Part shown: piece after piece, positions 16,740 through 61,084 of the stretch
Layout: every line of letters starts with the position of its first letter
Position numbering within the stretch: the stretch's first letter is position 1
Assembly (NCBI RefSeq): GCF_035084215.1
Contig: NC_090349.1
Coordinates: 24,614,001 to 24,678,000, forward strand
Source: Heptranchias perlo
Taxonomy: Eukaryota
DNA: 64,000 nucleotides
Direction of reading: 5' to 3'
Translations under genes and position numbers: made by a program
The notes under the pieces: generated by a model
The model's input: the letters and a program-made list of their open reading frames with translations, nothing else
Told to the model about the DNA's origin: nothing
The model's database searches: none

Positions 16740-17801
16740 TCATACATTCATTGTTGACTCAGTCTGGGATTGATCACAGGTATTACAGACTGGTACGTTT
16801 TTTAGATGTTGATCCAAAACTAGTTCTCTTTTGGGCTCTCTTGGTTGAATTCCTTCACTCGTTGCTGATGTGAAAAGGTTTAAATTAAGAGGAACAAGAG
16901 CTTTCTTCAAAGTAACATTAAATGTCGAACTTGAGAAGTGATAAATAACTGGGTCGAGCACACTGTTCAGATATGTCATAAATAGTGTATTATAAAATAC
17001 CTGAACAGCTGTTTCATATGACTTGCAGTCTTCTCTGCGTCTTTGCTTTGTAATTACAACAGCGAGTAGAGCAATGTTTGTGGGCAAGAAACAAAATATA
17101 AAAACCGCTGCCACAGCTATCACAAGCTTTACTGCTCGTTTATGTTTACCCCTCATTTCAGTTTCCATCTGTTTTAACTTCCAGATGATACAGGACGTGG
17201 AGTACAGGATAATCGAAGCTGGTAAAATAAAATTGAAAAGACCAAAAACAATATCGGTCCAAATTGTCAGAGGATTTAGAGGCTGGTACATGTTGAAGGG
17301 CTCACAGTATGTCAGATTGTTGTGCTTGAAGTCGTGATGTTCTGTTAAAAGGTGCAAAGAAATTGTCACTGCTAGAATCCACAGAGCACCTGCTACCTTC
17401 ACTGCACATCTTGCAGGTATCTTGTTCATTTGATGGTGAGGGTGGACCACCTTAAAATAACGATCGATCGCCGTAGCTGTAAGGAAAACGATGCTCCCCA
17501 TCCGGTTTAGGGAAATAAAGAATTGATTCACACGACATGCAGCATCACCAAAAATCCAGTTCTTCTCCCGTACAAAGTAATCTGCTCGAAATGGTAAACA
17601 GCAGATGAGCAGAGTGTCTGCAATCGCCAGATTCAGTGAATAAACAGTATTTGGTTTAAAGGACTTTGTATGAAAACAAAAGATCCATAAAGCAATTACA
17701 TTTCCGATGAATCCAAGGATAAATGTTATAATAATTACTGGTGGATTATAGGACGAATTAATGTCTTCAACAGAAGTACATTGCTGGGTCTCGTTGGCCA
17801 T
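16740..17801 (-). CDS. Hydroxycarboxylic acid receptor (HCAR2/3-like) class A GPCR, copy 1, 353 aa
   Basis: GNVIALWIFCFH, LNLAIAD, CLPFRADY, WIFGD..CR, NRMGSIVFLT (R3.36), DRYFKVVHPHH, CFLP, TYLNSVLDPVIY; ATG at 17801 in strong Kozak context ACAATGG. Confidence 0.93.
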   Translation of the reverse strand: MANETQQCTSVEDINSSYNPPVIIITFILGFIGNVIALWIFCFHTKSFKPNTVYSLNLAIADTLLICCLPFRADYFVREKNWIFGDAACRVNQFFISLNRMGSIVFLTATAIDRYFKVVHPHHQMNKIPARCAVKVAGALWILAVTISLHLLTEHHDFKHNNLTYCEPFNMYQPLNPLTIWTDIVFGLFNFILPASIILYSTSCIIWKLKQMETEMRGKHKRAVKLVIAVAAVFIFCFLPTNIALLAVVITKQRRREDCKSYETAVQVFYNTLFMTYLNSVLDPVIYHFSSSTFNVTLKKALVPLNLNLFTSATSEGIQPREPKRELVLDQHLKNVPVCNTCDQSQTESTMNV

Positions 17802-17871
17802 TGTAGGCAATATTACAGTAAACTCAGTCACAGGCACAGAAATGAGTTAATTAACTGAATGATGCACAACG

Positions 17872-17878
17872 TTATATA
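17872..17878 (-). promoter_or_regulatory. Candidate TATA box (TATATAA) about 70 bp upstream of the GPCR ATG
   Basis: Present at the same spacing in all four copies, including the diverged copy 4; Inr-like TCAGTT/TCATTT downstream. Confidence 0.45.
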
Positions 17879-19082
17879 GAATTCTTCCACTTTACATCAT
17901 AGATCATGGGTGGGGCTATAATAAAGTCAGACTATTTATCGAGTTATATCATAAACCTGCCAGCAATTCTCCTGGAACACCTTCAATATGCATTTACAGA
18001 TAAATCATTCAAACTATACACCAAACCTATGCAAATATATCAGGCTTTGAATTTGGCTGGAGACGTTATGATAACATAAAACTGTATGGTTCTACTCATT
18101 TTGCCTTCATAGATTCACCCAAAGAGGAAATGCTGTAATATTCCTTTTATCTGCCTTGTTAGAAAATTTGCAATCCATGCTCACTGTCAAGTTTTCATTC
18201 CCAAAATCAAAATACTATTCAGCAGAGTTGGTTAGCTACCTGCTGATGAGAATGAATTTTATTTTGTAGAAGCTCTTTTTAATGGATTTGTGTCTGGTCC
18301 TTAATTTGCAACAGTTCTGTGGCCTTGCAAGAAAAAGTGTTGGTAACTTCCTGCCACACATTCACAGGAGATAAGTGGCTCTTCTGTCCTCTCTCCACCA
18401 CAACATCCTTTGCTAATTTTTCTTTTCCTTCAGAAATCATAGAATGGTAACAAGATGGCTTCATGAGGTTTAACGCTTCTGAAATAGGTGAAGAGGACTA
18501 TGGGTTGGTACTGTTGCCTCAACTGTACAGTGCGTTCGGCAATTGGGCAGTGTGATTTTAGCGCACTTGCAATATAACACTGTGAATTTTTCCAAAATCA
18601 GTAGTGTGTTCTCGGTAGTGACAGCTCCGTGATGAACTGACTTTGCTGCACTTGTATTAATGCATCCAGTACTCTCCTGATGGTAGTGAATCGTGATAGG
18701 GTACGGATTCATTCTTCAAATTTGAATCCCACATTAAGTGCTGGCAGGGTATTATATGGTGTTGGATGGCAGGGTACCAGCAGACAAACCCAAATCTGTC
18801 CTCACCCAGTTGCCACACAAACAGGCCTAGAAATTCAATCACGTCCAAAAAAGGGCACACAGTGGTGTGCACTGCACGCGCCTTTTCAAGTTATACCAGG
18901 CTGCACGTTAAATTGATGCAGGTGTGCGGGTAGAGCGACCTATGCTATTCATTTGCTGCATGTCTCTTTGGCAGGTCCGGATATCGGATGTCTCTGCCAC
19001 CACTTAAAGGCAGCCAGCAACTCTTAAAGGGGAGGTGCACTCTGGCAGCAGACAGCAGGAAGCGCCTGCTGAAAGGAGAGAA

Positions 19083-20252
19083 ATGGCTGTAAGACCTGCA
19101 CATTGGGCCTCCAGGTTCTGCGATGCTGCTTTGGAGGCTCTGGTCCAGGTGGTGGGCAGGCGCAGGGAGATCCTGCTCCACCCAGGGGGCAGAAAGCTCT
19201 CCAGGAAACACCTCCGCCGCCAGTGGGAAGAGATTGCAGAGGAGGTCAATGTTAGGAGCTTATTCCCAGGACATGGTTGCAATGCCGGCAATAGTTGAAT
19301 GACCTCACCAGAGTTGTCAAGGTAAAAATACTGCTCTCTTACTCTTTGCTCACACCTCCACCATCTCCAGCCTCACTACTCACAAAACTCCCATCTCCCA
19401 CTTCCCTTCACTCTCCTACAACCACTGCACCACACTTCACTTCACTTCCTTCTCCTCCTACTCAAACTCTGCACTTTCTACACTCACCACTATTCCAATC
19501 CTCAGTTCCCAACACCTCACATCTGACATACTGCAGAAGAAATATTCAACCACGACACATACATTCTCCAAACACATCACAAGACTCTCACTAACACACT
19601 CCCTTCTTCCTTGCAGCAGAAGGTTGTGCACAACTCCAAACAGGACGCTGCCACCTGAGGAGGCTGAGCCCGCCTGCACACCCTGTCCCTGGTCGAACAA
19701 AATGTGCTGGCCATCACAGGCAGGGGGAGAGTTATGGACGTGGTGACTGACAATGGTGCAGGGTTTCCTCACACCTTATTCCCTTCTTACTTCTATTTCG
19801 CTCTACCCACTCTGCATGACAAACTGCTGCTGCTTTTATCAACCACTCATCTCTCCTTGCTCTCCCTTTACACTAAAATATAACCCTTGTCCCTCTCTAT
19901 CGTTTCAGGTGCTGACAATGTGGTGATGCCTCCGTCACTTCAGGAAGAGGTCACGTCTTCACTCAGTGAATGGCCAGGCACAAGTGTGCAGGAGCTTGGA
20001 CAGGGGGACAGGATGTCACAGGTGCCAGCTCACCGGAGGTTGAGTAACATTCTAGCTCTGCTGCAGAGGACTCAGATGTTGACTTCGAGGGCCCAGGCTA
20101 CCAAAGTAGGCTGATGGGCATATACCAGGAAATACTAAGTACATCAAGCAGCCTGCTAGTGAGCAAGGAGGAGTCCAGTTCCAACTTGTGTCAAGGCTTC
20201 ATGCAGAGCATGGAGACCGTTCTGTTCAACATGCAGGGCCCTTCACCTGGTG
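19083..20252 (+). pseudogene. Harbinger Myb/SANT gene remnant (multi-exon), segment B; interrupted by the copia element
   Basis: RFCDAALEALVQVVGRRREILL...QWEEIAEEVN...WLQCRK*LNDL, GTAA donor at 19322, acceptors TTGCAG (~19615) and TTTCAG (~19908). Confidence 0.75.
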
Positions 20253-20257
20253 TCCTG

Positions 20258-20472
20258 TGTTTATAAATCGGATAGCCAGGTGTTGAAGGATAGAATACTA
20301 GAGCCGAGTCTTCCGTTGCTTCCACGCCTTTATTCACAAAGCTCCACATTACACCCACAGCAAACCAGAGATCAGCTCGCTTATAAATGGATACAAGAGA
20401 GTTCCCAATTGATATGCAGCACCTGAATACAGTTAACACCAGTTGATATAAATCACATGAATACAATTAACA
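20258..20472 (-). repeat. Copia 3' LTR, segment B
   Basis: TG...CA termini, TSD TCCTG at 20253-20257, minus-strand TTTATAAG (20380-20387) and AATAAA (20329-20334). Confidence 0.9.
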
Positions 20473-23023
20473 GATTCCCTTCTCCCTCTTTAAATTACAA
20501 AAATAAACGTTATATATACAATACAAACAAAATTTTGAAAATTCAAAAATTTCCATTCTCTGTATAACTTATACTATTCAAAGCGTTACATTGTGAGGCG
20601 ACCCTTCTCCAGGACCCGTAATAATTTCTTCATACATCTACTTCTTTTAGTAAAACAATCCAACAGTTGATAGCTTGAATCCACCCATTTAATTTGAGAG
20701 ATTTCCTTTCTCTCCAGCATTTGTTTCAAGCCAGCAAGTTCAATCCGTAATCTTTTCTCACTCACATTTTTCGTAGAGTGTACATTAACCCACAATGAAT
20801 GATTTCTACATAACATTCAATGGGTATAGTATCTTCAGTACTCCCATTGTACAGGATGTCACTCAAAATATTTGCCAAATAGAATCCCATATCCAGTGCG
20901 TCGACAAGAGCCAGTGTTTCAGCAGCCAGAGTACTTTTAACAATCCTTTTTATGTTCCTAGCTTCCCAAGCTGGAGGACAACATTTCCCATTCTTCCCCA
21001 TAAGAAACACTCTGATACCAGCTGCACTAGAATACCCATCAGGAAGATTAGCATGTGAAGCATCACTAAAAATAACGAACTTCATTTTCTTTGCCTCACC
21101 TAAGGATGGAAACTTAAGTACCAATTTGTCTATATTTAATTTTTTGTAATGTTTTATCAGCCCGTAAAGCATTCTCGGCTATGGGGTGTTTTGTTGAAGC
21201 ACTGAACTCCAATACATCAAAACTGGCATCTGGTCTAGTCTGAGTGCACAAACAGTTCAACTGACCAATCAAGCTTCGTAATAGCTCTGTCTCTTCTTTA
21301 GATATAACATCACCATTCTGAGATGACCTAGTACGATTCAACCGGACGGGAGTAGCACTCTCATGAACATGTTGCAAAAAGAGCCAAAAAGATTTTGAAG
21401 TTTACCTTTCCAGCAGTGGGAGAATCCACTTGAACATTTGTATCACCCAGTTTCTCTTCAAAACCCCTCACTACCAACCTCGCTTAAGCTGAAAAGTCCC
21501 ATCTGCAAGGACTTTTTCAGTACAAACCCACCAATGCGACAAAGCTGGTTGACCCTTATGTTACCTCAGAATAAACTCCAAATTTGTTCCAACTGTCTCA
21601 CTCCCTTCATTTTGCCTCTCATACTCGTTTATCCTCAACTTTATTGGCAGCACCCAAAACTTCACGATCATGAAGATTTCTTCTTCTAGTTCTGTTACGT
21701 GACTGTTCTGTAGTCTTTGTTTCATTGTCTGACCTGGTCAAGCTACATATTCTACTTCCATTTCTATGTCTGTAGGGACAACTACAAAGAGATCTCCCTC
21801 TTTCATTTCTTGTTCGCAATCGTTTTCTCAGGTGAGATTCACTTCCGGACTCCATATCACTACTTGTACTCCACTTTCGTACTCTCCACTCTTTTACCCC
21901 ATTCTGCCAGCCCATGAACCTCGATTCATGGCCATCATCCTGATCATTCAACCAAAATTTAAACCTACCAGTAGCTTTGCTGGCACATCCCAAAATTGTT
22001 GCGTCCCTCCATTCATTAGTCCCTTCTGGAACATATGTCACCTGTGTACCCACTTTGGGTAATTGTTCTGTGGATGTGATAGCTGTGTCAGATGTTGCTT
22101 CATCACTGACATTACCCATTGTCCAGTCCTTGATCGACCTCAGTCTGTACATCAGGAACCTCATCAGTAAAATCATAAACATCTGCTCAGAGTCTGAGAT
22201 TTTATAATTAATTCCAATTCATCGTGAGGAATGAACTTTAACAGTTTGATTGCCTTGTTGGACAATTACTGTCTTACCATCACAACCTATTACCTCACCA
22301 GGGTCTTTCCATTCCCTATGGCCCTCTCTTCTACAGTATACCAAATCTCCTGAATTGAACTCTGTTTCAGATGGTCTAATAAGATGCCTCAGCGCTCTAC
22401 AAATTTCCTCTGATACCTCTGCCTTGATAAAAGCCTGTCTCTCTGCATGCATAACATTTAAATGCTCAAAAAAAATGGCACTAATTGTAGTATCTTCTAG
22501 AGCAAGAGCATTATCACAAAGAACACAAGGTAATTTGGGATTGCGCCCACAGACTAGTTGGTAAGCATTATATCCTCCAACCAACTGAAGAGAATTCTTT
22601 GCATGAACTGACCATGCGAGGACAGTTGTCAATTTACACATTGTGCGATCAGCCAAAATTTTATGCACCATGCTATCAATCACAGCATGATTCCTTTCAC
22701 ATAGACCAATGCTAAAAGGGCAGTCAGTTGCTGTATTCATGACAATTATATTCATATTTTCACACATATCTCTGAACTCCGCTTTAGCAAATTCACCTCC
22801 ATTATTGGTCAAAAACTTTGCTGGTGTCCCAAGTCCAGTCCTTATCTATTTTTCCATAATTTTATCGAGAATAACCTTCTTCTCCTTACTATATATTAGT
22901 GTAGAAATACTAAATCTCATAGCCAGTTCAATGAAATGTAAGATGAAAACATTTCTGTCTTTGCCCCATACCTTTAGATCCATGGCAGCTACTCTTAACC
23001 TTATCGCCTGATGCTATTAATAC

Positions 23024-23496
23024 TTTTTTTTTATTCGTTCATGGGATGTGGACATCAGTGGTGAGGCCAGCATTTATTGCCCATCCCTAATTGCCCTTGA
23101 GAAGGTGGTGGTGAGCCGCCTTCTTGAACCGTTGCAGTCCGTGTGGTGAAGGTTCTCCCACAGTGCTGTTAGGAAGGGAGTTCCAGGATTTTGACCAAGC
23201 GACGATGAAGGAACGGTGATATATTTCCAAGTGGGATGGTGTGTGACTTGGAGGGGAATGTGCAGTTGGTGTTGTTCCCATGTGCCTGCTGCCCTTGTCC
23301 TTCTAGGTGGTAAAGTTCGCAGGTTTGGGAGATGCTGTCGAAGAAGCCTTGGTGAGTTGCTGCAGTGCATCCTGAGGATGGTACACACTGCAGCCACGGT
23401 GCACCAGTGGTGAAGGGAGTGAATGTTTAGGGTGGTGGATGGGGTGCCAATCAAGCAGGCTGCTTTGTCCTGGATGGCATCGAGCTTCGAGTGTTG
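23024..23496 (-). mobile_element. CR1/L2-clade LINE 3' fragment with poly(A), inserted in copia pol
   Basis: SKSWNSLPNSTVG...GLQRFKKAAHHHLLKGN*, ending CCCATGAACGAATAAAAAAA; absent at the segment A site (~4703). Confidence 0.85.
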
Positions 23497-24719
23497 TTGC
23501 CTAACACGATGATGAGAAACATCACATTTTATTAAGGGGTTACAATAATGCCCTGACTGGGTAAACTGCAAATCAACCGGTTTCCCAAAAATGATAGCCT
23601 CATCGTGTTCCATGTCAAGTTTCATTTTTGCCTTTTTCATGGAAGGTTTACCCAAAAGCATTGGTATCTCACTAGAGACTACACCCATATTTATAAAATG
23701 GCTTACTCCAGCTATCTTACATGGAATTACCACTCGCTTGGGTGACCTCAAAGTGTTCTCATCTCAAAACGTAAAACATGTAGACCTTTTATATTCCTTA
23801 ACCTTGCATTGATCCTCACTGCTTCCTGAATCAAGATAACATTTTTAACCAATCTACCCCACATACAGTTGAAGTATATTTACTATCTAACACCGCACAG
23901 TTAAAGGAATCCGCGACTAATACATTCATCACAGGATCAGAACTCCTTGTGACCAGTATAATCTGTTCAGATTCCTCATTATCTTCAACCTCTTCCTCAT
24001 TTTCTTTATCCTCTTCCTCAGAACTACTTTCTTCATGCATCATTTCAAAGACACTGTGACTTTGCTCTGGGCAATTCGCCTAATAATGATACTTAGAGTC
24101 ACATCTAAAGCATCTATTAATTTTTCCTCGGGCATTCCTGAGATTCATTCATTATTACTGTCCCAATTTTGTCTTCTGTTGATATAACTGGATTTGTTGT
24201 ACCTACTTTCGTCACCAATCTGGCTGTCTTTAAACCTTCCGTCAGATCGACGGAAAATTTTGAAACCTGGTCTGGCGCCTGCGTTTAGTATCTGGAACAT
24301 TTCAAAACCTGGTAACCATCGAATCTTCCATTCTTTGTGTCACAGCGGAAGATCCCATTTGTTCGACGGAGGCTGATGGAAATGACTGTTTCCTCAGGAA
24401 TTTTTTTAAGGCAGCAGACATTTGATCCCACAGAGTCTCTTTTTCGAAGAACTGGACGCCAGTTAGGACCAGTTGTCTGTCCATATAAGACACGTTAGCA
24501 CAATCTTTAAATGGTAATATCAATCCAAGAATTCCCAATTGGATCTTTGTCAACCTTTTCTACAATTTGTTAAAGTCCATGATATACACTTCCATTGAAT
24601 GACTGTCTGTTTTCCGAAATCTATCAAATGCTGACCAGGCTTCATTGGCACTTAACAGGTCATCTTTCTGGTAGATTTGATCCAGAAATTCTATTAGAAA
24701 GGTAAAACCTTCATCATTT

Positions 24720-25360
24720 AGGGATTTACAAGGATGTTGCCAGGGCTGGAGAATTTTAGCTATGAGAAAAGATTGGATAGGCTGGGTTGTTTTCTTTGGA
24801 ACAAAGGATGCTGAGGGGAGATTTAATTGAGGTATATAAAATTATGACGGGACTTGATAGAGTGGATAGGGAGGACTTCAAAAGGGAACTGAGTAAGTAC
24901 TTGAAAGGAAAATATTTGAAGGGCTACGGGGATAAGGCAGGGGAGTGGCACCAGCTGGATTGCTCTTGCATAGAGCCGGCGCAGACTCAATGGGCTGAAT
25001 AACCTTCTTCTCTGCTGTAACCTTTCTATGATTCTAGGACCTATATCCCTTAGCAGAGGGGTCAGTGACCAGGGGGCATAGATTTAAAGTAATTGGTAGA
25101 AGGATTAGACGGGAGCTGAAGAAAATTCTTTTCACCCAGAGTGTGGTGAGGGTCTGGAACTCACTGTCTAAAATGGGCGGTAGAGGCAGAAGCTCTCACC
25201 TCATTTAAAAAGTACTTGGATGTGCACTTGAAGTGTCGTAACCAACAGGGCTACGGACCAAGTGCTGGAAAGTGAGATTAAGCTAGATAGCTCTTTTTCG
25301 GCCAGCACAGACACGATGGGTCGAATGGCCTCCTTCTGTGCCGTAACTTTCTATGATTCT
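24720..25360 (+). mobile_element. CR1 3' fragment with a nested second CR1 3' end (~24870-25037), segment B
   Basis: Homologous to 13356-13830 plus an extra tail-terminated insert; fused to copia gag by a deletion. Confidence 0.8.
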
Positions 25361-25429
25361 AAGCCTACCATATTCTGCTTACGACAAGTATTTGTTAACA
25401 GAGAAGACTACCACCTTCATTAACAACAA

Positions 25430-26580
25430 TAATGAGGACATGGAGGAGGAAAGGGTGGAAGCCAGGAGAGTGCAGCAGCATCTTTGCAGGCAACACCTGA
25501 CCCACGTGTATCCACACCACAGGGTCTACAGACCAGAGAAGACTGATCTGGATTTTTCCAATGGGAAGTATCTGAGAAGCTGCTGAGACTGTGACCGTCA
25601 TATGTGTTGGAACTTGACATGCAGCCTCCTTCCACATCGGAACATAAGAACAGAAGTGGGCCATTCAGCCCGTCGAGCATCTTCCACCCTCTGTAGCTCC
25701 GGGGGCACTGCCTTCTCTGTGGCTGTGAAGGTGACCACAGGAGTTAACTTTTATGCATCCAGATGCTTCCACGCAGCCTCTGGTAACATTAATCATATCA
25801 GTCAGTCAGATGTTCATCACTGCATTACACAGGTCATGGGTGCTTCAGACATGTCTCCAACTTCATTCAGACCCACATGCACCCAGCAACGCAGAGAGAA
25901 AGAGAGCCATCAACATCTTCCAAGTGGCTGGAATTCCACAAAATGCAGGGTGTTATTGATACCACCCAGTGGAAATGAAGGCCCTGTCTGGAAACCCCAC
26001 CAACCTCATCAACAGGAAGGGATCTCATTCCCTCAATGTGCAAATAGTGAGTGATGCTAGCCATCTCATTATGCATGTCAATGCATGCGACCTAGGGTGT
26101 AGCCCTGATTAGTTTACTCTCAGTCAATCCAGGATACTAGGATACTTGGACTGATCATCTTCAGCTATGTGACAGGGTGGCTCATAGGAGACTGGGGTAC
26201 ATGACCCAGCCTTGGCTCATGCCACATTTTTGGCATCTGAGGACAAAACTTGGGCACTACCAGGATCATTGTAAACGAGACCCATCGTATTCTCAAGTCC
26301 AATTTCCAGATCATTGAGAATCATGCAGTAACATCTAGCAAGGGTTTGTAGAACTGTAGTGACTTGCTGCAACCTCCATAATGTGGCCATTACAAGGGGA
26401 TTGCACCTTCCAGGCATGGACGGTGAAAAGGAAGAAGCTGAGCTAAATGTAGCCTTCTCAAAAATTGTGGAGAGCTCAGGGTGAAGTACACCTGCCTGGA
26501 TCTTTAGGTGTGGGTATCAGCAGGTCGGGGCCAGTAACTGCCTAAGATGCCTGATCAACCTGGCCTCTCTCCACATATAG
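25430..26580 (+). pseudogene. HARBI1-like transposase remnant, segment B
   Basis: Paralogue of 13900-15050. Confidence 0.72.
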
Positions 26581-28250
26581 AAGTGGACCCCCTGGAGCAG
26601 CCCAAATATCCTTTTTTGACAGTCTTTTTCTGGTCCCTTCTCATTCTAAAGATGTGATTTTCCCCCTTTAGGTGGCCCTGTCATGTAACGTTATGCCATA
26701 GCACCACCTTTAGGTGTAATACTTTGAGACCACTGAGTAGGCAAAACTGTGAAAGATGGAGTTGAATGTGGGGAAGTGTGAGGTCATCCATTTCGGAACC
26801 AAGAAAGACATCAGATTATTTTCGAAATGGCGAGAAACTAGGAACTGTGGAGGCGCAAAGGGATTTAGATGTCCAGGTACACAAATCACTAAAAACTAGT
26901 ACATAGGAAATCAAAAAGGCTAATGGAATGTTGGTCTTTATCGCAACAGGGCTGGAATACAAAGCGAAGGAAGTTTTGCTTCAGTTGTTCAGAGCCTTGG
27001 TCAATCCCAATCTGAATTACAGTGTTAAGTTTTGGACAACGCACGTCTGCCAGCTGTGTGTGAACCTCTGATCTCCTTGTATTAGTTGCTTTTAATGCAC
27101 CAGCTTGTGGCCTGTCCCATTAGTGGCCCAATCCTTTGGTTCTCTTGAAAAGTCCTCTTGGCGATACCAAACGCATTGTTCATCGACCAGTCAGCTATGT
27201 GCTGCAAGCTGTGCTCCTCCGAATTCTGCCACTTTACTTCCCCAAGACCAATCCTGATTAACAATGCCGTACTAGATTACTAGAGTATAATCACTGTCCA
27301 CTGACAAATAATTAACATCCTGCAACGAATCTCCTCTTTGCACATATCCCACTTCCACACAGAGCAGAATAACCATTCCAGACATACAATCATAACCCCT
27401 CTCCTCTGTTTCTCTAGCCTAATCCCCCATTTCCCTTTACCCCTCTTCCTGGACCTCTCTCCCCCTCCTCTCCGCTCGCCCTCTTCCCTCCCCCATAATG
27501 ATGAATCAAGATACAGCAAGTATTTCTAATGTAATTCATATTTACATCAGCTATTATCCAACCCTATGATGGCAACCGAGCAACATCTCCAGGGCAGTAG
27601 TTCATTTATTCTTCGGGTAGTTTTTGGATTCTACTCAAGAATGAGACACAAGTTGCAAAACAGTAAAAGTCTCAGCATTGATTGGTCAATTGCAATTACA
27701 TAATAATAAAATATTGGAAGATCTAAATAATAATTAACAGCCAGAGGAGAACATTATTTCTCTATACCATGTAAAAGCATACAAAGGAATTATTAATTAT
27801 TAAGTAATTATTCTACTTCAAATTTTTTCTCTTTTAATTATCATCCTTGTTTCTATTTAGCTGTATTTTTCGTGGCCTTTGTTGGTGTTTTGCAATACAT
27901 TTTCTCAGTAAACCACCTCAAGATTATACCACAATGGTTCAGTACTTCCAGCAATGGTACGAGAGAAATATATTGTGGTTGGGTGGAGTGGGATGCGGCT
28001 GGCAAGGGAGAATTTTACATACACCAGGACTCATCACAATCTCAAAACCCTGTAGAAATTGTTCCTTCACTTTAAAGAATTTAAAGAAATATTTTGCAGG
28101 TGCATAACACTTGACTTTGAAAGTTGCAGTATATTTCAGCACACATTCTTTCGAAACACATTACCTGATTAAAAAATGTTTCAACTTCAAATCATTCCAA
28201 GGCTTTCCACTTATTCACAGACTATACTTTAATTAAACAAGCTCATACAT

Positions 28251-34994: not shown

Positions 34995-35211
34995 TTGCCT
35001 AACACGATGATGAGAAACATCACATTTTATTAAGGGGTTACAATAATGCCCTGACTGGGTAAACTGCAAATCAATCGGTTTCCCAAAAATGATAGCCTCA
35101 TCGTGCTCCATGTAAAGTTTCATTTTTGCCTTTTTCATGGAAGGTTCACCCAAAAGCATTGGTATCTCACTAGAGACTACACCCGTATTTATAAAATGGC
35201 TTACTCCAGCT

Positions 35212-38623: not shown

Positions 38624-38694
38624 TAAGCCTACCATATTCTGCTTACAACAAGTATTTGTTAACATGGAAGACTACCACCTTCATTAACAACAAT

Positions 38695-47832: not shown

Positions 47833-48115
47833 CTATTTTTTCATTCATTCATGGGATGTGGGCATCGCTGGCGAGGCCAGCATTTATTGCCCATCCCTAA
47901 TTGCCCTTGAGAAGGTGGTGGTGAGCCGCCTTCTTGAACCGCTGCAATCCGTGTGGTAATGGTTCTCCCACAGTGCTGTTAGGAAGGGAGTTCCAGGATT
48001 TTGACCCAGCGACGATGAAGGAATGGTGATATATTTCCAAGTTGGGATGGCATGTGACTTGGAGGGGAACATGCAGGTGGTGTTGTTCCCTTGTGCCTGC
48101 TGCCCTTAAGTGTTG
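47833..48115 (-). mobile_element. CR1/L2-clade LINE 3' fragment in copia pol, segment D (internally deleted)
   Basis: Same site and ends as 23024-23496 but about 190 bp shorter. Confidence 0.8.
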
Positions 48116-49265: not shown

Positions 49266-50398
49266 AGCATTTGACTGAGTTTGGCACCAAGGAGCCCTAG
49301 TAAAATTGAAATCAATGTGAATCAGGGGGAAAACTCTCCAGTGGCTGGAGTCATACCTAGCACAAAGGAAGATGGTAGCGGTTGTTGGAGGCCAACCATC
49401 GCAGCCCCAGGGCATTGCTGCAGGAGTTCCTCAGGGCAGTGTCCTTGGCCCAACCATCTTCAGCTGCTTCATCAATGACCTTCCCTCCATCATAAGGTCA
49501 GAAATGGGGATGTTTGCTGATGATTGCTCAGTGTTCACTTCCATTCGCAACCCCTCAGATAATGAAGCAGTCCGTGCCCACATGCAGCAAGACCTGGAAT
49601 ACATCCAGGCTTGGGCTGATAAGTGGCAAGTAACATTTGTGCCAGACAATGACCATCTCCAACAAGAGAAAGTCTAACCACCTCCCTTGACATTCAACGG
49701 CATTACCATTGCTGAATCCGCCACCATCAACATCCTGGGGGTCACCATTGACCAGAAATTTAACTGGCCAACCACATAAATACTGTGGCTACAAGAGCAG
49801 GTCAAAGGCTGGGTATTCTGGGCAAGTGACTCACCTCCTGACTCCTCAAAGCCTTTCCACCATCTACAAGGCACAAGTCAGGAGTGTAATGGAATACTCT
49901 CCACTTGCCTGGATGAGTGCAGCTCCAACAACACTCAAGAAGCTCAACACCATCCAGGACAAAGAAGCCCGCTTGATTGGCACCCCATCCACCACCCTAA
50001 ACATTCACACCCATCACCACCGGCGCACCGTGGCTGCAGTGTGTACCATCCACAGGATGCACTTCAGCAACTCGGCAAGGCTTCTTCGACAGCACCTCCC
50101 AAATCCTTTACCACCTCGAAGGACAAGGGCAGCAGGCACATGGGAACACCACCATCTGCACGTTCCCCTCCAAGTCACACACCATCCCGACTTGGTAATA
50201 TATCGCCGTTCCTTCATCGTCGCTGGGTCAAAATCCTGGAACTCCCTTCCTAACAGCACTGTGGGAGAACCTTCACCACACGGACTGCAGCGGTTCAAGA
50301 AGGCGGCTCAACACCACCTTCTCAAATGCAATTCGGGATGGGCAATAAATGCTGGCCTTGCCCAGCGATGCCCACATCCCATGAACGAATAAAAAAAA
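49266..50398 (+). mobile_element. CR1/L2-clade LINE, 5'-truncated, inserted in copia gag, unique to segment D
   Basis: [29 protein letters not shown], poly(A) end; AGGC duplicated at 49262-49265/50399-50402. Confidence 0.9.
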
Positions 50399-51600: not shown

Positions 51601-51634
51601 GACACTTAGGCCTAGATTTACCTTTAAAAAACTG

Positions 51635-51807: not shown

Positions 51808-52566
51808 CTTTAAAAAACTGCCCATTTTCTGGCATGTTTAAAGGCAGTCTGGCAAGTAAAATGGAATGCAGGAGCTCTCTGACACAACTCCACCTCTTAA
51901 AAGAGCCACCATGATTTCCCTCCCATGACACCTCTGTGATGCTGATCCGCCCACTGCAAGTGCATCGCGCCGCAGGATGCATGGCCAAGTGCCCCCGCCC
52001 CCACCCCAGCCCCAGAGATTGTCCTGTGTTTGTGTAGATGCAAATGGTGTCACTCAAGATCACATCTCACCTCGTTAACTGTTGAATTACTTTGGGCGCC
52101 TATGACCCTGTTACTTGATAAACAACCAACAAAGACAGTCAATCTAGGGAAAGATAACAAGTACAGGGAAGTCACACTTCACACTAGACAGAACACAGAA
52201 ATCTGTGTGAAATCAAGCTTTGATGGGAGAAATGTCACACATGGTTTGAGTGAATAAAGACACAGCAATCTTTGTGGGGAAATGGCCGTTTCAAAGCCAG
52301 TTGCCTTTAAGTGGTGTTTGAATGGCAGATAGAGACGATCAGTATGTATTAAATAGGTTTCAGTGTCCAGAGTATGAGGAAAAGGTGGCATAAAGGGACC
52401 ATGCTTTGCCTGTTAGTTGTGTACAATACTGAAGCTGCTGTCTCTACTGTACTCATTCCAGCCTACCTCTGGATACAAAGAACGTATATCTATGTTTGAT
52501 TGTACCCTATTTGTTCAAACTGCTTTTAATAAAGGATAGAGTTTCTTTTAATTGGAAGAAGTTGAG

Positions 52567-53334
52567 GCATAGAATATAAGAGCAGGGAGGTTATGCTAGA
52601 ACTGTATAAAACATTGGTTAGACCACAGCTTGAGTACTGCGTACAGTTCTGGTCACTACATTACAGGAAAGATGTAGTTGCACTAGGGAGGGTACAGAGG
52701 AGATTAACAAGGATGTTGCCAGGGCTGGAGAATTTTAGCTATGAGAAAAGATTGGGTAGGCTGGGGTTGTTTTCTTTGGAACAAAGGAGGCTGAGGGGAA
52801 ATTTAATTAAGGTATATAAAATTATGACGGGACTAGATGGAGAGGATAGGGAGGACTTCAAAAGGGAACTGGATAAGTACTTGAAAGGAAAAAAAATTGC
52901 AGAGTTACAGGGATAAGGCAGGGAAGTAGCACTACCTGGATTGCTCTTGCAAAGAGCTGGCGTGGACTCAATGGGCTGAATGGCCTCCTTCCGTGCTGTA
53001 ACCTTTCCATCATTTGAGGACCTATTTCCCTTTGCAGAGGGGTCAGTGACCGAGGGCATAGACTTAAAGTAATTGGTAGAAGGATTAGACGGGAGCTGAG
53101 GAAAAATTCTTTCACTCAGAGGGTCTAGAACTCACTGCCTGAAAGGGGGTAGAGGCAGAGACCCTCAACTCATTTAAAAAGTACTTGGATGTGCACTTGA
53201 AGCTTCGTATCCGACAGGACTACGGACCAAGAGCTGGAAAGTGAGATTAAGCTGGACAGCTCTTTTTCGGCCGGCAAGGACACAACGGGCTGAATGGCCT
53301 CCTTCTGCGCCATAACTTTCTATGATTCTGATTC
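52567..53334 (+). mobile_element. CR1 3' fragment with a nested CR1 3' end, segment D
   Basis: MLELYKTLVRPQLEYCVQFWS...LEQRRLRG; paralogue of 13232-13830 plus the nested insert at ~52855-53020. Confidence 0.85.
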
Positions 53335-53497
53335 CAAGCCTACTGTATTCTGCTTACGACAAGCATTTGTTAACATAGAAGACGATCACCTTCGTTAACA
53401 ACAATAACGAGGATGTGGAGATGCCGGTGATGGACTGGGGTTGACAATTGTAAACAATTTTACAACACCAAGTTATAGTCCAACAATTTTATTTGAA

Positions 53498-53538
53498 ATT
53501 CACAAGCTTTCGGAGGCTTCCTCCTTCCTCAGGTGAAT
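53498..53538 (-). ncRNA. Minimal type I hammerhead ribozyme in Penelope pLTR
   Basis: Reverse complement reads ATTCAC-CTGAGGA-A-GGAGG(AAG)CCTCC-GAAA-GC-TT-GTGAAT. Confidence 0.75.
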
Positions 53539-53803
53539 GTTGTGGAAATGAAATCCTCGAACCCTTCGCATTTATAAATCACAGAACAATACCTGGTGAT
53601 TACAGATAGTCTTTCCAACTGCCCGTTGCCAAGGCAATCACAGTGTGCAGACAGAGAGGTGTTACCGACAAGGCCACCGAATATACAAACACCCAAAAAA
53701 CAAAGAGAGAGAGAGGCAGAAACATAGAAACATCCGGAAGGAAGAGAAACACAGCAAATGACCCGTTATATTAAAAACAGATAACATTTGTTCGCTGGTG
53801 GGG

Positions 53804-55640
53804 TTACGTGTAGCGTGACATGAACCCAAGATCCCGGTTGAGGCCGTCCTCATGGGTGCGGAACTTGGCTATCAATTTCTGCTCGACGATTTTGCGTTGT
53901 CGTGTGTCTCGAAGGCCGCCTTGGAGTATGCTTACCCAAAGGTCGGTGGCTGAATGTCCTTGACTGCTGAAGTGTTCCCCGACTGGGAGGGAACCCTCCT
54001 GTCTGGCGATTGTTGCGCGGTGTCCGTTCATCCGTTGTCACAGCGTCTGCATGGTCTCGCCAATGTACCATACTCTGGGGCATCCTTTCCTGCAATGTAT
54101 GAGGTAGACAACGTTGGCCGAGTCACAGGAGTATGAACCATGCACCTGGTGGGTGGTGTCCTCTCGTGTGATGGTGGTATCTGTGTCGATGATCTGGCAT
54201 GTCTTGCCGAGGTTACTGTGGCAGGGTTGTGTGGTGTCGTGGACGCTGTTCTCCTGAAAGCTGGGTAATTTGCTGCGAACGATGGTCTGTTTGAGGTTGG
54301 GTGGCTGTTTAAAGGCGAGTAGTAGAGGTGTGGGGATGGCCATAGCGAGGTGTTCGTCGTCATTGATGACATGTTGAAGGCTGCGGAGAACATGGCGTAG
54401 TTTCTCCGCTCCGGGGAAGTACTGGACGACGAAGGGTACTCTGTTGGTTGCGTCCCGTGTTAGTCTTCTGAGGAGGTCTATGCGATTTTTCGCTGTGGCC
54501 CGTCGGAACTGTCAATCGATGAATCGAGCGTCATATCCCGTTCTTACTAGGGCGTCTTTCAGCGTCTGTAGGTGTCCATCGCGTTCCTCCTCGTCTGAGC
54601 AGACCCTGTGTATTCGCGGGGCCTGTCCATAGGGGATGGCCTCTTTGACGTGGTTAGGGTGGAAGCTGGAAAAGTGGAGCATCGTGAGGTTGTCCGTGGG
54701 CTTGCGGTAGAGTGAGGTGCTGAGGTGCCTGTCTTTGATGGAGATTCGTGTGTCCAAGAAAGAAACTGATTCTGAGGAGTAGTCCATGGTGAGCTTGATG
54801 GTGGGATGGAACTTGTTGATGTTATCGTGTAGTCTCTTTAGTGATTCCTCGCCGTGGGTCCATAGAAAGAAAATGTCATCGATGCATCTGGTGTATAGTG
54901 TTGGTTGAAGGTCCTGTGCAGTGAAGAAGTCCTGCTCGAACTTGTGCATGAAAATGTTGGCGTATTGGGGTGCGAATTTGGTCCCCATGGCTGTTCCGTG
55001 TGTTTGGGTAAAGAACTGGTTATCGAAGGTGAAGACATTGTGATCCAGGATGAAGCGGATGAGTTGTAGGATGGCGTCTGGAGATTGGCTGTTGTTGGTG
55101 TTGAGTATTGATGCTGTCGCAGCGATGCCGTCATCGTGGGGGATACTGGTGTAGAGTGCCGAGACGTCCATCGTGGTGAGAAGTGTTCCTGGTTCAACTG
55201 GTCTGTGGGTACTGAGTTTTTGTCGGAAGTCTGTAGTGTCGCGACAGAAGCTGGGGGTTCACTGTACGATGGGTTTCAGGATGCCCTCGATGTATCCAAA
55301 GAGGTTCTCACACAGGGTTCCGTTGCCTGATACGATAGGACGTCCGGGTGTGTTGGCTTTGTGTATCTTTGGGAGGCAGTAGAAGTACGTGGGATGAGAG
55401 CGCGTAGGATGCTTTGAAGGTCTGGATCGAAGGTCTTGATCAGTTTGTTGAGCTGGTGGGTGTGTTCTTTGGTCGGATCTACAGGTAACCGTCTGTAGTG
55501 ATCCTGGTTGTCCAGTTGTCGGTATGCTTCTTTGCAATTGTCCGTTCTGTTTTGTATGACGATGGCTCCTCCTTTGTCCGCTGGTTTGATGACGATGTTG
55601 CGGTTGGTCTTGAGAGCGTTGATGGCGTTGTGCTCGGGTG
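53804..55640 (-). pseudogene. Penelope RT-GIY-YIG ORF, disrupted
   Basis: Fragments 55276-55740, 55259-55537, 54512-55171, 54038-54343 and 53804-54031; YIDD mutated to CIDD. Confidence 0.88.
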
Positions 55641-56398
55641 ACATTCTGGACTGTCTTCTGAGTGCGGCTGAGTGCCAGCTTTCAGGAGAACAGCGTCCAT
55701 GACACCACACAACCCTGCCACGGTAACCTCTGCAAGACATGCCAGATCATCAACACAGATACCACCATCACACGAGAGGACACCACCCACCAGGTGCATG
55801 GTTCATACTCCTGTGATTCGGCCAACGTTGTCTACCTCATACGTTGCAGGAAAGGATGCCCCAGAGCATGGTACATTGGCGAGACCATGCAGACGCTGCG
55901 ACAACGGATGAACGGACACCGCGCAACCATCGCCAGACAGGAGGGTTCCCTCCCAGTCGGGGAACACTTCAGCAGTCAAGGACATTCAGCCACCGACCTT
56001 CGGGTGAGCATACTCCAAGGCGGCTTCGAGACACACGACAACGCAAAATCGTCGAGCAGAAATTGATAGCCAAGTTCCGCACCCATGAGGACGGCCTCAA
56101 CTGGGATCTTGGGTTCATGTCACGCTACACATAACCCCACCAGCGACAAATGTTAACTGTTTTTAATATAACGGGTCATTTGCTGTGTTTCTCTTCCTTC
56201 CGGATGTTTCTATGTTTCTGCCTCTCTCTCTCTTTGTTTTTTGGGTGTTTGTATATTCAGTGGCCTTGTAGGTAACACCTCTCTGTCTGCACACTGTGAT
56301 TGCCTTGGCAACGGGCAGTTGGAAAGACTATCTGTAATCACCAGGTATTGTTCTGTGATTTATAAATGCGAAGGGTTCGAGGATTTCATTTCCACAAC

Positions 56399-56439
56399 AT
56401 TCACCTGAGGAAGGAGGAAGCCTCCGAAAGCTTGTGAAT
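56399..56439 (+). ncRNA. Minimal type I hammerhead ribozyme (inverted-arm copy)
   Basis: ATTCAC CTGAGGA A GGAGG AAG CCTCC GAAA GC TT GTGAAT; perfect 6-bp stem I and 5-bp stem II. Confidence 0.75.
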
Positions 56440-56494
56440 TTCAAATAAAATTGTTGGACTATAACTTGGTGTTGTAAAATTGTTTACAACAATA

Positions 56495-57625
56495 ATGAGG
56501 ACATGGAGGAGGAAATGATGGAAGCCAGGAGAGTGCAGCAGCATATTTGCAGGCAACACCTTACCCACATGTATCCACTCCACGGGTCTAGAGACCAGAG
56601 AAGACCTATCTGGATTTTTGTTATGGGAAGTATCTGAGAAGCTGCTGAGACTGTGACCATGATATGTGTTGGAACTTGATATGTTCCTATGTGGAAGGAG
56701 GCTGCATAAGAACAGGAGTGGGCCATTCAGCCCATCGAACCTGTTTCACCATTCAATTAGATCATGGCTGATCTGCACCTCTGTGGCTGTAATGGTAACA
56801 GCAGTCAACTTTTGTGCATCCGGATGCTTCTACACAGCCTCTGGTGACATTAATCATATCAGTCAGTCAGATCTTCATCGCTGCATTGCACAGGTCATGG
56901 GTTCTTCAGATATGTCTCTAAGTTCATTCAGACCAACATGGACCCAGCAATGCAGAGAGAAAGAGAGCCATTAGCTTCTTCCAAGTGGCTGGAATTCCAC
57001 AAAATGCAGGGTGTTATTGATACCACTCAGTGGCAATGAAGGTCCTGTCTGGAAACCCCACCAACCTCATCAACAGGAAGGGATCTCATTCTCTCAAAGT
57101 GCAAATAGTGAGTGATGCTAGCCATCTCATTATGCATGTCAATGAGTGCAACCTAGGGTGTAGCCCTGATTAGTTTACTCTCAGTCAATCCAGGATACCT
57201 GGACTGCTCATCTTCAGCTATGTGACAGGATCGCTCATGGGGTATCTGACCCAGCCTTGGCTCATGCCACATTTTTGGCATCTGAGGACAAACCTTGGGC
57301 ACTACCAGGATCATTGTAAACAAGACCCATCGTATTCTCAAGTCCAATTTCCAGCTCATGGGGATTCATGCAGTGACATCTAGCAAGGGGTTGTAGAACT
57401 GTAGTGACTTGCTGCATCCTCCATAATGTGGCCATTACAAGGGGATTGCACCTTCCAGGCATAGAAGGTGAAAAGGAAGAAATTAAATTAAATGTAGCCT
57501 TCTCAAAAATTGTGGAGAGCTCAGGGTGAAGTACACCTGCCTGGATCTTCAGGTGTGGGTATCAGCAGGTCGGGGCCAGTAACTGCCTAAGGTGCCTAAT
57601 CAACCTGGCCTCTCTCCACATATAG
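56495..57625 (+). pseudogene. HARBI1-like transposase remnant, segment D
   Basis: Paralogue of 13900-15050. Confidence 0.7.
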
Positions 57626-59267
57626 AAATGGACCCCCTAGAGATGCCCAAATATCCTTTGTGGAGCCTGGAGGAGAACTCCTGTATTTTTTGACAGTCTT
57701 TTTCTGGTCCCTTCTCATTCTAAAGATGTGATTTTCCCCCTTTAGGTGGCCCTGTCATGTAACGTTATGCCATAGCACCACCTTTAGGTGTAATACTTTG
57801 AGACCACTGAGTAGGCAAAACTGTGAAAGATGGAATTGAATGTGGGGAAGTTTGAGATCACCCACTTTGGAACTAAGAAAGACATCATAATATTTTCTAA
57901 ATGGCGAGAGACTACGAACTGTGGAGGCGCAAAGGGATTTAGGTGTCCAGGTACAGAAACCACTAAAAAAATTGCACATAGGAAATCAAAAAAGATAATG
58001 GAATGTTGGTCTTTATCCCAACAGGGCTGGAATACAAAATAAAGGAGTTTTGCTTGAGTTGTTCAGAGCCTTGGTCAGTCCCAATCTGGATTACTGCGTT
58101 CAATTTTGAACACCGCATTTCTGCCGGCTGCGTGTGAACCTCTGATCGCCTTGTACTTGTTGCTTTTAATGCACCAGCTTGTGCCCGTCCCATCAGTGGC
58201 CCGATCCTTTGGTTCTCTTTAAATGCCCTCTTGGCGATAACAAAGGCATTGTTCATCGACCAGCCAGTTGTGTGCTGCAAACTGTGCTCCTCTGAATTGT
58301 GCCGCTTTACTTCCCCAAGACCAATCCTGATTAACAATGCCGTACTAGATTACTAGAGTACAATCACCGTCCACTGACAAATAATTAACATCCTGCAACG
58401 AATCTCCTCTTTGCGCACGTCCCCCTCCCATACAGAGCAGAATAACCATTCCAGACACACCATCATAACCACCCCCTCCTTCCTCCAGCCCACTCCCCCA
58501 TTTCCCTTTACCCCTCCTCCTCGACCTCTCTCCCTCGCCTCTCCCACTCTTCCCTCCCTTACAATGATGAATCAAGATACAGCAAGTATTTCTAATGTCA
58601 TTCATATTTACAACAGCTATTGTCCAACTCCTATGATGGCAACCGAGCAACATCTCCAGGGCAGTAGTTCATTTATTCCTCGGGTAGTTTTTGGATTCCA
58701 CTCAAGAATGAGGCACAAGTTGCAAAACAGTAAAAGTCTCAGCATTGATTGGTCAATTGCAATATCATAAAAATAAAATACTGGAAGTTTTAAATAATAA
58801 TTTACAGCCAGAGCACCACATTATTTCTCTATGCCATGTAAAAGTTTACAAAGTAATTATTAAAATAGATAAAGTGAATTGCCAAAACATGTGGACATCA
58901 AACCAGCAGGCAAAGTAATTAGAAATGTATTTTGCTTTCCTTCGTTCCGGAAAGGGATATAAATGAGTACTAATAGGCTTTTGCTACATCAAAACTAAAC
59001 AAAATTGTTTTAATGGATACGTTCTGCTCCTTATGTTGGTGACTTGGTCCCATAGAGAGACTCCATTCCTCTCATTTAGCTTCCAAATGGAAAATTATGT
59101 TGTTGAGCCTTAGAGGGGGAGTTTCTGGAGATTTTTCTTCCTCTCTGATCTTTACAAGAATCACGAAAGAATGCATTTTGTCATCAAAAATCGCCAATCA
59201 ATATTGCACAGTAAAATATTGTAAGTTTTCTGGTAAAACTATGTTATGCTTTGACTACAGATACTTA

Positions 59268-59470
59268 TTTTTTTTCAAAAAATATACTTTATTCATAAAA
59301 TTTGTAGCAAAAACATACAATACAGTTGTCATATCACATTCCAAACATACACAATACAGATTATACAATTTGCAGGTTAAATCAAGTACAGTTCAATGAA
59401 CACATTGTACATAATTACAGTTCATGACACTCTGGGGTGTCTCATTGTATTATATTTAACCCATACACAA
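59268..59470 (-). mobile_element. Probable non-LTR retrotransposon 3' end (L1/Tx1-like)
   Basis: Minus strand ends ATGAATAAAGTATATTTTTTGAAAAAAAA; no coding motif retained. Confidence 0.4.
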
Positions 59471-60022
59471 ATGCTTCTTACGTTGCAACAGGACTTCTAT
59501 CACCTTCACACTGTCACTTATCTCAACAAACATGAGCTAACAAAGGAACGTTACAGCTTGCTTCCTTTTTATTCTACATGCTACTTTTTCTCTTTTGATT
59601 ACCTTCCTTGTTTCTATTTAGCTGTATCTTTCGAGGCCTTTGTTGGTGTTTTGTAATACACTTTCTCAGTAAACCACCTCATGGTTATACCACAATGGTT
59701 CAGTACTTCCAGTAATGGTACGAGAGAAATATACTGTGGTTGGGTGGAGTGGGATGCGGCTGGCAAGGGAGAATTTTACATACACCAGGACTCATCACAA
59801 TCTCAAAACCCTGTAGAAATCGTACCTTTACTTTAAAGAATTTAAAGAAATATTTTGCAGGTGCATAACACTTAACTTTGAAAGTTGCAGTTTATTTGAG
59901 CACACATTCATTAGAAACACATTACCTGATTAAAAAAATGTTTCAACGTCAAATCATTCCAAGGTTTTGCACTTATTCACAGGCTATACTTTAATTAAAC
60001 AAGCTGATAATTAGCAGCTAGC

Positions 60023-61084
60023 TCATACATTCATTGTTGACTCAGTCTGGCATTGATCACAGGTATTACAGACCGGTGCCTTTTTTAGATGTTGATCCAC
60101 AACTAGTTCTCTTTTGGGCTCTCTTGGTTGAATTCCTTCACTCGTTGCTGATCTGAAAAGGCTTAAATTAAGAGGAACAAGAGCTTTCTTCAAAGCATCT
60201 TTAAATGTCGAACTTGAAAAATAGTAAATGACTGGGTCGAGCACACTGTTCAGATATGTCACAAATAGCGTATTATAAAATACATGAACAGCTGTTTCAT
60301 ATGATTTGCAGTCTTCTGTGGCTCTTTGCTTTGTAATTATAACAGCGAGTACAGCAATGTTTGTGGGCAAGAAACAAAATATAAAAACCGCTGCCACAGC
60401 TATCACAAGCTTTACTGCTCGTTTATATTTACCCCTCATTTCAGTTTCCATCTGTTTTAACTTCCAGATGATGCAGGACGTGGAGAACAGGATAATCGAA
60501 GCTGGTAAAACAAACTTGAAAAGAATAAAAACAGTGTCGGTCCAAATTGTCAGAGGATTTCCACGCTGGTATACGTTGAAGGGCTCACAGTATGTCAGAT
60601 TGTTGTGCTTGAAGGTGTGCGGTTCTGACAAAAGGTGTGAACAAATTGCCACTGCTAGAATCCACAGAGCACCTGCTACCTTCACTGCACATCTTGTAGG
60701 TATCTTGTTCACTTTATGGTGAGGGTGGACCACCTTAAAATAGCGATCGATCGCCGTAACTGTAAGGAAAACGATGCTCCCTACCCGGTTTAGGGAAATC
60801 AAAAATACCTTCAGACGACATGCAACATCGCCAAAAATCCAGTTCTTCTCCCGTACGAAGTAATCTGCTCGAAATGGTAAACAGCAGATGAGCAGAGTGT
60901 CTGCAATCGCCAGATTCAGTGAATAAACAGTATTTGGTTTCCAGGATTTTGCATGAAAACAAAAGATCCATAAAGCAATTACATTTCCAATGAATCCGAG
61001 AATAAATGTTATAATAATTACTGGTGGATTGTAGGACGAATGAATGTCTTCAACAGACGCACAAAACTGGGTCTCGTTGTCCAT
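60023..61084 (-). CDS. HCAR2/3-like GPCR copy 4 (most divergent), 353 aa
   Basis: Same motifs; retains HCAR-like KSWK and DPVIYYFSS; ATG at 61084. Confidence 0.93.
   Translation of the reverse strand: MDNETQFCASVEDIHSSYNPPVIIITFILGFIGNVIALWIFCFHAKSWKPNTVYSLNLAIADTLLICCLPFRADYFVREKNWIFGDVACRLKVFLISLNRVGSIVFLTVTAIDRYFKVVHPHHKVNKIPTRCAVKVAGALWILAVAICSHLLSEPHTFKHNNLTYCEPFNVYQRGNPLTIWTDTVFILFKFVLPASIILFSTSCIIWKLKQMETEMRGKYKRAVKLVIAVAAVFIFCFLPTNIAVLAVIITKQRATEDCKSYETAVHVFYNTLFVTYLNSVLDPVIYYFSSSTFKDALKKALVPLNLSLFRSATSEGIQPREPKRELVVDQHLKKAPVCNTCDQCQTESTMNV

Follow-up and report, generated by a model that had tools for sequence, protein, structure and literature searches.

What do four receptor genes lying in tandem on a shark chromosome descend from, and what do they sense? 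The stretch analysed here (the window) comprises 64,000 nucleotides of Heptranchias perlo (contig NC_090349.1, positions 24,614,001 to 24,678,000), and four open reading frames (ORFs) on its minus strand, A to D, encode receptors resembling the hydroxycarboxylic acid receptors (HCARs). An earlier note, made from the sequence alone, had described them as a lineage-specific tandem expansion with all four ORFs intact, had rightly supposed that the source was a shark, and had proposed an independent diversification of ketone and hydroxy-acid sensing. The array itself is ordinary, and is already represented by NCBI and UniRef protein records. We lean towards the view, drawn from residues and trees, that A to D would be young members of a multi-copy chondrichthyan G-protein-coupled receptor (GPCR) subfamily from the HCAR/OXER1/GPR31 stock, carboxylate sensors retuned copy by copy.

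Four receptor genes and their ligand pocket

Copy A (16740..17801) is a single-exon ORF of 353 aa identical to record P0001, copy B (28251..29303) has 350 aa, copy C (41527..42588) has 353 aa, and copy D (60023..61084), the older paralog, has 353 aa and is identical to record P0002. Each matches the Pfam profile 7tm_1 (PF00001) over its whole length (E 2e-48 to 7e-46) and displays the traits of class A GPCRs, namely seven helices, C3.25-C45.50, DRY and DPxxY. The R3.36, DRY and DPxxY reported by the earlier note were confirmed in 4/4 copies as R100 (3.36), D113-R114-Y115 and D283-P284-x-x-Y287. In copy B a net 1-nt deletion near 28,290 replaces the last ~16 residues with 13 others, leaving the frame unaffected through the seven-transmembrane (7TM) core and helix 8 and altering the distal C-tail alone. 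A to D are real class A GPCR ORFs, open through helix 8; the description of all four as intact holds for A, C, D and the core and helix 8 of B, and not for the frameshifted distal tail of B. Over codons 1-334, A, B and C differ mutually at 7-15 residues (95.5-98% identity), and D differs from them at 40-44 of 334 (about 87% identity). The 90% cluster of P0001 has exactly three members (353, 350 and 353 aa), on one contig. The predicted structure of D has a predicted local distance difference test score (pLDDT) of 81.9. The nearest solved structures, by sequence and by fold, are HCAR1-3, the top fold match being human HCAR1 (PDB 8z8a; root-mean-square deviation 2.0, 44% identity), but no OXER1 or GPR31 chain appears for comparison among 60 listed of 90 PDB sequence matches. 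The copies are receptors of the HCAR/OXER1/GPR31 family.

Pocket positions were numbered by alignment to orangutan HCAR2, and are compared below with the expanded shark clade to which the window copies belong (clade 1), with bony-vertebrate HCARs and with the OXER1 clade (papers are cited by PMC number, for the parts of them that were accessible). R3.36, DRY and DPxxY occur together in 76/80 clade-1, 27/27 bony-vertebrate HCAR and 39/43 OXER1-clade rows, and are hence family-wide motifs and not the HCAR markers for which they had been taken. The carboxylate anchor, R100 (3.36) with Y277 (7.43), is present in 4/4 window copies; OXER1 has both residues too, so that the anchor is not diagnostic. 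All four copies also carry the HCAR1-type pair R2.60 (R72) and E45.51 (E167), with Y at 7.36, as in fish and amphibian HCARs, instead of H. The HCAR1 set is R2.60, R3.36, E45.51 and Y7.43, its R71 (2.60) occluding a sub-pocket used by HCAR2 agonists (PMC12040280). The HCAR2 signature (L2.60, W in extracellular loop 1 (ECL1), S45.51) is absent from A to D, which have R72, K80 and E167. The three-disulfide HCAR pattern is incomplete, with only C8, C89, C166 and C259 found and the first N-terminal cysteine missing, as it is in several ray-finned fish HCARs.

A further departure is the loss, in 4/4 window copies, of the S45.52/H5.39/R6.55 network, which in human HCARs links ECL2 with TM5/6; its residues are replaced by P168, T182 and V/L245 (L6.55 in copy A). 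In HCA1, H177 (5.39) contacts S167 (45.52), whose backbone engages the ligand hydroxyl, and R240 (6.55) anchors ECL2, with R240A halving efficacy (PMC11873900). Bony-vertebrate HCARs retain S45.52 in 27/27, H5.39 in 25/27 and R6.55 in 23/27 rows, whereas in clade 1 position 45.52 is P in 73/80, 5.39 is T in 77/80 and 6.55 is V in 68/80, with R6.55 in none of the 78/80 tallied; E5.46 is replaced as well, by K in 55/80 and N in 10/80. Within the window, 3.28/5.46 read K/K in D and N/N in A, B and C, and 3.29 is Q in A, V in B, L in C and V in D. Position 3.28 is among the HCA2/HCA3 determinants, and M103V among those of HCA3 (PMC10516952).

Set beside human HCAR1 (GPR81, the lactate receptor), the shark copies share the single-exon 7TM ORF, R2.60, R3.36, E45.51, F in ECL2, L7.39, Y7.43, DPxxY and two of three disulfide pairs, but differ in P45.52, T5.39, K/N5.46, V/L6.55, Y7.36, K/N3.28, the one N-terminal cysteine and the multiple copies. 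Human HCAR2 and HCAR3 (GPR109A/B) are 42-44% identical to them and are likewise tandem duplicates differing at pocket site 3.28, but their duplication is independent, HCA2 being mammalian (PMC6532841), and the shark copies are without L/V2.60, W/S-ECL1 and S/I45.51. OXER1 (including zebrafish hcar1-3 and hcar1-4) and GPR31 share R2.60, R3.36, Y7.43 and DRY/DPxxY with the array, and OXER1 is also without R6.55; on the other hand, OXER1 has E/Q-ECL1, L/R/Q45.51, G/A6.55 and H/S7.36, retains S45.52, H5.39 and E5.46, and forms a separate, well-supported clade. Our literature search for OXER1 binding residues returned no paper. Judged by its residues, the array departs from the HCAR pocket at several positions and is not an HCAR2 equivalent.

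Family placement and distribution

To which branch of the family do these receptors belong? Trees of 83, 58 and 36 rows were built (the 58-row quick tree after dropping long and redundant rows, the 36-row tree under LG+G4), and all three support a group of bony-vertebrate HCARs, one of OXER1 and one made up of the expanded shark clade. The link between this last and a second shark clade is weak (80/42 to 88). The second clade comprises P0080 (H. perlo), P0079, P0082 and P0552-P0554, annotated as HCAR1/2-like, with one record per species in six sharks and no named ray or chimaera member among the matches listed. In these six sharks the contigs bearing it equal in length those of the clade-1 genes. 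In H. perlo this paralog is apparently single-copy and on the same contig as the array genes. Probably the sister clade of the array (50-53% identity), it differs in keeping C-E-S-F and, in 3/3 rows, S45.52, H5.39, R6.55 and E5.46, and in being without the N-terminal and ECL3 cysteines.

Descent from the HCAR locus is moderately favoured on sequence grounds, chiefly because K-ECL1, E45.51, N6.52 and Y7.36 of the shark clade match fish HCARs, unlike OXER1. Two results weigh against it. In maximum-likelihood trees neither shark clade falls within HCAR or within OXER1/GPR31, a weakly supported position (81/57), and approximately unbiased (AU) tests on 36 rows reject neither the union of both shark clades with HCAR (p=0.27) nor that with OXER1 and GPR31 (p=0.29). 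Clade 1 with OXER1 (p=0.14) and clade 2 with HCAR (p=0.15) are not rejected either; clade 1 with HCAR gives p=0.047 and clade 1 with GPR31 p=0.029, the latter with only 2 GPR31 rows. These six tests are uncorrected and their groups were named after the trees had been seen; the outgroups are distant cyclostomes, and the order of sharks, HCAR and OXER1+GPR31 is not settled by the trees. The HCAR orthology implied by the earlier note thus finds no preference in trees or AU tests over a placement with OXER1/GPR31.

These same tests bear on the possibility that A to D are the shark OXER1/GPR31, that is, leukocyte receptors for oxidised fatty acids mislabelled as HCAR-like. Besides the failure of AU tests to reject clade 1 with OXER1 or both shark clades with OXER1 and GPR31, it gains from a coelacanth "OXER1" that is 47-49% identical to the array, against 42-48% for any HCAR, from the shared absence of R6.55 with N3.28 and S3.33 in common, and from the lack of any named chondrichthyan OXER1 among 120 listed of 563 matches to turtle OXER1. 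There is also a precedent for such misnaming, as zebrafish hcar1-3 and hcar1-4 count as orthologs of OXER1 in PMC9973399, and the OXER1 clade takes in many fish "HCAR2-like" proteins in the case of our 83- and 58-row trees. However, the shark clade is never nested within the OXER1 clade, which has support of 98-100 without sharks; the four residues just named agree with fish HCARs; S45.52, H5.39 and E5.46 are retained in OXER1; and clade 1 with GPR31 alone gives AU p=0.03. We consider this identity unlikely. As a side observation, no named chondrichthyan OXER1 or GPR31 was present among the matches listed, in which some representatives are unnamed; sharks may lack them, or such proteins may lie beyond the 120 listed of 563.

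Published placements differ in scope: chimaera and whale shark genes have been listed as HCA1 orthologs, with the origin of HCA2 put in mammals (PMC6532841), and fish HCAR1L and OXER1 sets have been described with sharks unmentioned in the part accessible to us (PMC6504862). The HCAR locus is marked by KNTC1 and DENR (PMC13237431). In four stretches of the window, Pfam found no host-gene domain in 120 ORFs (stop to stop, 62 aa or longer), which yielded a Myb/SANT relic and sub-threshold noise alone. By our own pairing of accessions, the chimaera gene listed as an HCA1 ortholog is presumably a protein of the divergent clade.

How widespread is the expansion? Among 120 listed of 206 matches, 21/21 named elasmobranch species have at least 2 proteins of the window clade, and no member was found outside cartilaginous fishes among the matches listed. 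Records number at least 16 in Hypanus sabinus, 14 in Hemitrygon akajei, 11 each in Amblyraja radiata and Mobula birostris, 9 in Leucoraja erinacea, 5 in Heterodontus francisci and 2 (RefSeq) in Callorhinchus milii; these per-species counts come from ten opened clusters, and isoforms or haplotigs may be among them. The four copies of the window form one group in a quick tree of 84 rows (Shimodaira-Hasegawa-like approximate likelihood ratio test (SH-aLRT) 85; A/B/C 100), adjoining two Pristiophorus proteins, the copies of other species cluster by species, and K/N at 3.28 switches at least 6 times. An older clade-1 type with F3.33/C7.40 (for example P0009, P0012, P0028, P0030 and P0068) is seen in sharks and rays and is absent from the four window copies. 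The copies are lineage-specific, as first described, and independent of the HCAR2/HCAR3 duplication, yet expansion is the norm for the clade and four copies lie at its low end. We found no description of a chondrichthyan HCAR-like subfamily in the literature searched, including the main text of shark genome papers, whose supplements may list it, with subscription journals mostly uncovered; PMC12844162, in its accessible part, covers teleost GPR81 only and not sharks.

Cartilaginous fishes rely on ketone bodies as fuel. This is the root of the proposal that the array records a diversification of ketone sensing, in which detection of beta-hydroxybutyrate or acetoacetate evolved independently of mammalian HCAR2. 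The retained carboxylate anchor is compatible with it, the small beta-hydroxybutyrate need not clash with R2.60, and the expanded clade was seen, among the matches listed, only in this ketone-reliant group, although that is a class-level correlation with n=1. Against it, the HCAR2 pocket signature is missing (2.60 is R, not L, and ECL1 has K, not W); L83R impairs an HCAR2 agonist, albeit a synthetic one and not the ketone (PMC12040280); P45.52 stands in place of a serine that engages the ligand hydroxyl through its backbone (PMC11873900); and protein records with lower bounds of 2 to 16 per species are hard to link to one fuel molecule. With H5.39 and R6.55 lost as well, the proposal finds no positive support beyond that one coincidence, and we regard it as improbable.

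A recombining array and the constraint on its copies

The genes sit in head-to-tail units of 11-13 kb, delimited by self-BLAST and alignment: unit A (13508..25035, 11.5 kb; ORF text was also used), unit B (25036..38299, 13.3 kb, with a private insertion of 1,766 bp bearing a reverse transcriptase (RT) fragment at about 35212-36975) and unit C (38300..49271, about 11 kb). D lies in an older homologous unit (52159..61530) with insertions at about 53412-56489 and 58864-59568. The unit edges fall within relics that we take, from their ORF text, to be of long interspersed nuclear element (LINE) type, that of the left edge of unit A being an RT relic. Units A, B and C are 3.0-4.9% divergent, and any two of them differ by 19-29 indels. 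To the left of about 29,550, informative sites favour B=C over A=B (157 vs 65), and right of it A=B over B=C (236 vs 60), the change-point being the best one picked by a scan, so that its p-value is no test. Unit B is hence a chimera, C on the left and A on the right, with its inferred crossover zone at 29480..29850, 200-550 bp upstream of the copy B ATG, and copy B consequently resembles C in its coding region and A in its upstream region. Such a chimera is the expected outcome of unequal crossing-over in an A-C array, and the present array, with its head-to-tail units and recombinant middle unit, is a product of this process.

Three near-identical units in succession could also be uncollapsed haplotypes in the assembly. 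Their divergence, indels and private insertions, the clean chimera pattern in unit B and comparable arrays in other species make such an artefact highly improbable. The array grew by unequal crossing-over between repeat-rich units, D splitting first from A/C, then A from C, with B arising last as the C/A chimera. A and C diverge by 1.9% within the ORF and by 4.5-8.4% in the surrounding sequence, a drop suggestive of constraint together with gene conversion; the 3' flank of D is 8.5-9.5% diverged from A/B/C, in line with a synonymous divergence (dS) of 0.10-0.13. Contigs from X5 (organism B) placed on D showed 86 differences, against 88-93 for A/B/C, and were unusable for timing the split of D from A/B/C. 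Units bounded by repeats, a chimeric middle copy, coding regions that are homogenised and gene-tree clusters by species are the features of birth-and-death tandem GPCR arrays, from whose mechanism the shark array shows no difference. Formation by unequal crossing-over is a general pattern of such arrays.

Are the copies constrained? The parsimony ratio of nonsynonymous to synonymous change (pN/pS) is 0.55 for the four copies (p=0.012), and in the cytoplasmic half it falls to 0.34 (0.13 among A/B/C), so that the ratio near 1 throughout named by the earlier note as a refutation was not observed. Over codons 1-300 we saw 0 disabling hits where about 8.5 are expected for the four copies (P about 2e-4) and 4.1 for A/B/C alone (P 0.016), expectations computed at flank substitution and indel rates, although indel rates of non-coding sequence may be too high for coding sequence. 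Stops and frameshifts private to single copies interrupt the co-duplicated retroelement frames while the receptors stay open, as the earlier note had seen, although frame calling was crude there, changes of frame account for some of the "shared" stops and the shared/private split is rough. The ORFs of A to D are maintained by selection, most strongly on the cytoplasmic half.

Retuning by copy is another matter, and here the selection analysis adds its own counterpoints. Among A/B/C alone pN/pS is 0.57 and not significantly off neutrality (p=0.11). The extracellular half of A/B/C has 13 nonsynonymous and 2 synonymous changes against 3 and 7 in the cytoplasmic half, regions fixed after the variable sites had been seen; eight other paralog sets give an extracellular/intracellular ratio of 0.9-2.7, and four ortholog sets one of 0.7-2.6 (2.6 for mammalian HCAR2 orthologs), so that the excess is a general GPCR pattern (pooled p=0.06), and we set aside as unproven the idea of positive selection on the extracellular face. 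Pocket sites account for 27/280 of the differences among chondrichthyan paralogs against 16/406 of those among ortholog controls (p=0.004), an excess that persists at 20/207 (p=0.006) once the window and two non-independent sets are removed. The paralog changes nevertheless amount only to the pocket's share of sites (9.6%), which indicates loss of constraint without evidence of positive selection; relaxed constraint fits as well as retuning. A, B and C might then be redundant recent copy-number variants, kept by dosage or drift with one shared function and non-adaptive differences, as their ratio not significantly below 1, the recombinant B with its shifted tail, the homogenised coding regions and the extracellular bias of the controls would allow. 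The constrained cytoplasmic half, the survival of the three ORFs and the presence of three different residues at pocket site 3.29 despite 95.5-98% identity speak against redundancy, which we judge unlikely.

Runs X1-X3, from one sample whose RNA nature was guessed and is not on record, give a weak hint that the array is transcribed. Over 433 bases a contig covers the ORF of copy C with 0 differences (8 would be expected from A, 9 plus a gap from B), a 318-base contig has 4 differences, as expected from A, and a 643-base contig has 13 and fits neither A (16) nor B (9). Bins of D were uncovered, which counts neither for nor against its expression.

Several other elements surround the receptors. 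Unit C contains, on the minus strand, an integrase-bearing retroelement relic (46170..49271; Pfam rve at E 7e-5, short of the cut-off), broken versions of which occur in A and B. A further copy of this element, 90-94% identical, occupies 3518-6462 and ends in a ~210-bp repeat also found at 20261, 31775 and 45039, a possible long terminal repeat; it may have inserted independently, or it may be the right end of one more unit lying to the left of the window, and no fifth clade protein was found on the array contig among 120 listed of 206 matches. An inverted repeat (85-1749 / 1821-3485) with 100% identical arms of 1,665 bp and a 71-bp spacer is either a very recent insertion or an assembly palindrome; each arm bears the same open 405-aa frame, with no Pfam match, which we take from its RT and GIY-YIG motifs to be Penelope-like, and a broken relative, 93% identical, lies at about 53412-56489. 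Also inside unit C, on the plus strand, is a relic of a Myb/SANT-like DNA-binding domain (43695-44075; PF13873, E 1.5e-6), presumably from a Harbinger-type DNA transposon. A minisatellite at 62806-63644 (37-bp unit x 22.7 copies, 94% matches) accounts for a repetitive 230-aa ORF at 63180.

What the receptors may sense

Our best reading is that the array is an orphan chondrichthyan HCAR-type variant under birth-and-death evolution. The subfamily would most likely stem from an old tandem duplication at the HCAR locus, after which the second-clade paralog (P0080) would have kept ancestral lactate-type sensing while the array came to encode receptors for other small polar carboxylates. From the retained residues, an HCAR-like mode of action, that of a Gi-coupled carboxylate sensor, is probable, and so is a ligand other than ketone bodies alone. 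The copies may have been retuned at 3.28, 3.29 and 5.46, much as HCAR3 was from HCAR2, and a variable set of dietary or microbial ligands would accord better with recurrent gains than would a single endogenous fuel, beta-hydroxybutyrate for example. More tentatively, the clade could be a carboxylate-GPCR family of its own (lower bounds of 2 to 16 records, depending on the species), marked by one pocket rewiring (P45.52/T5.39/K5.46/V6.55) and repeated K3.28 to N changes among young duplicates, in which copies such as D, by virtue of two additional lysines, would bind an anion that is doubly charged or new in some other way, and N-type copies such as A, B and C another set.

Automatic names such as "HCAR2-like" thus mask a chondrichthyan subfamily lacking three pocket residues that are conserved from ray-finned fish to humans. 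Comparison of D, C and P0080 offers a natural experiment on HCAR ligand specificity and on whether sharks own a ketone receptor. If the retuning proposed here is true, the array would be a larger-scale shark analogue of the sensing of microbial metabolites by HCA3, or else an independent origin of ketone sensing.

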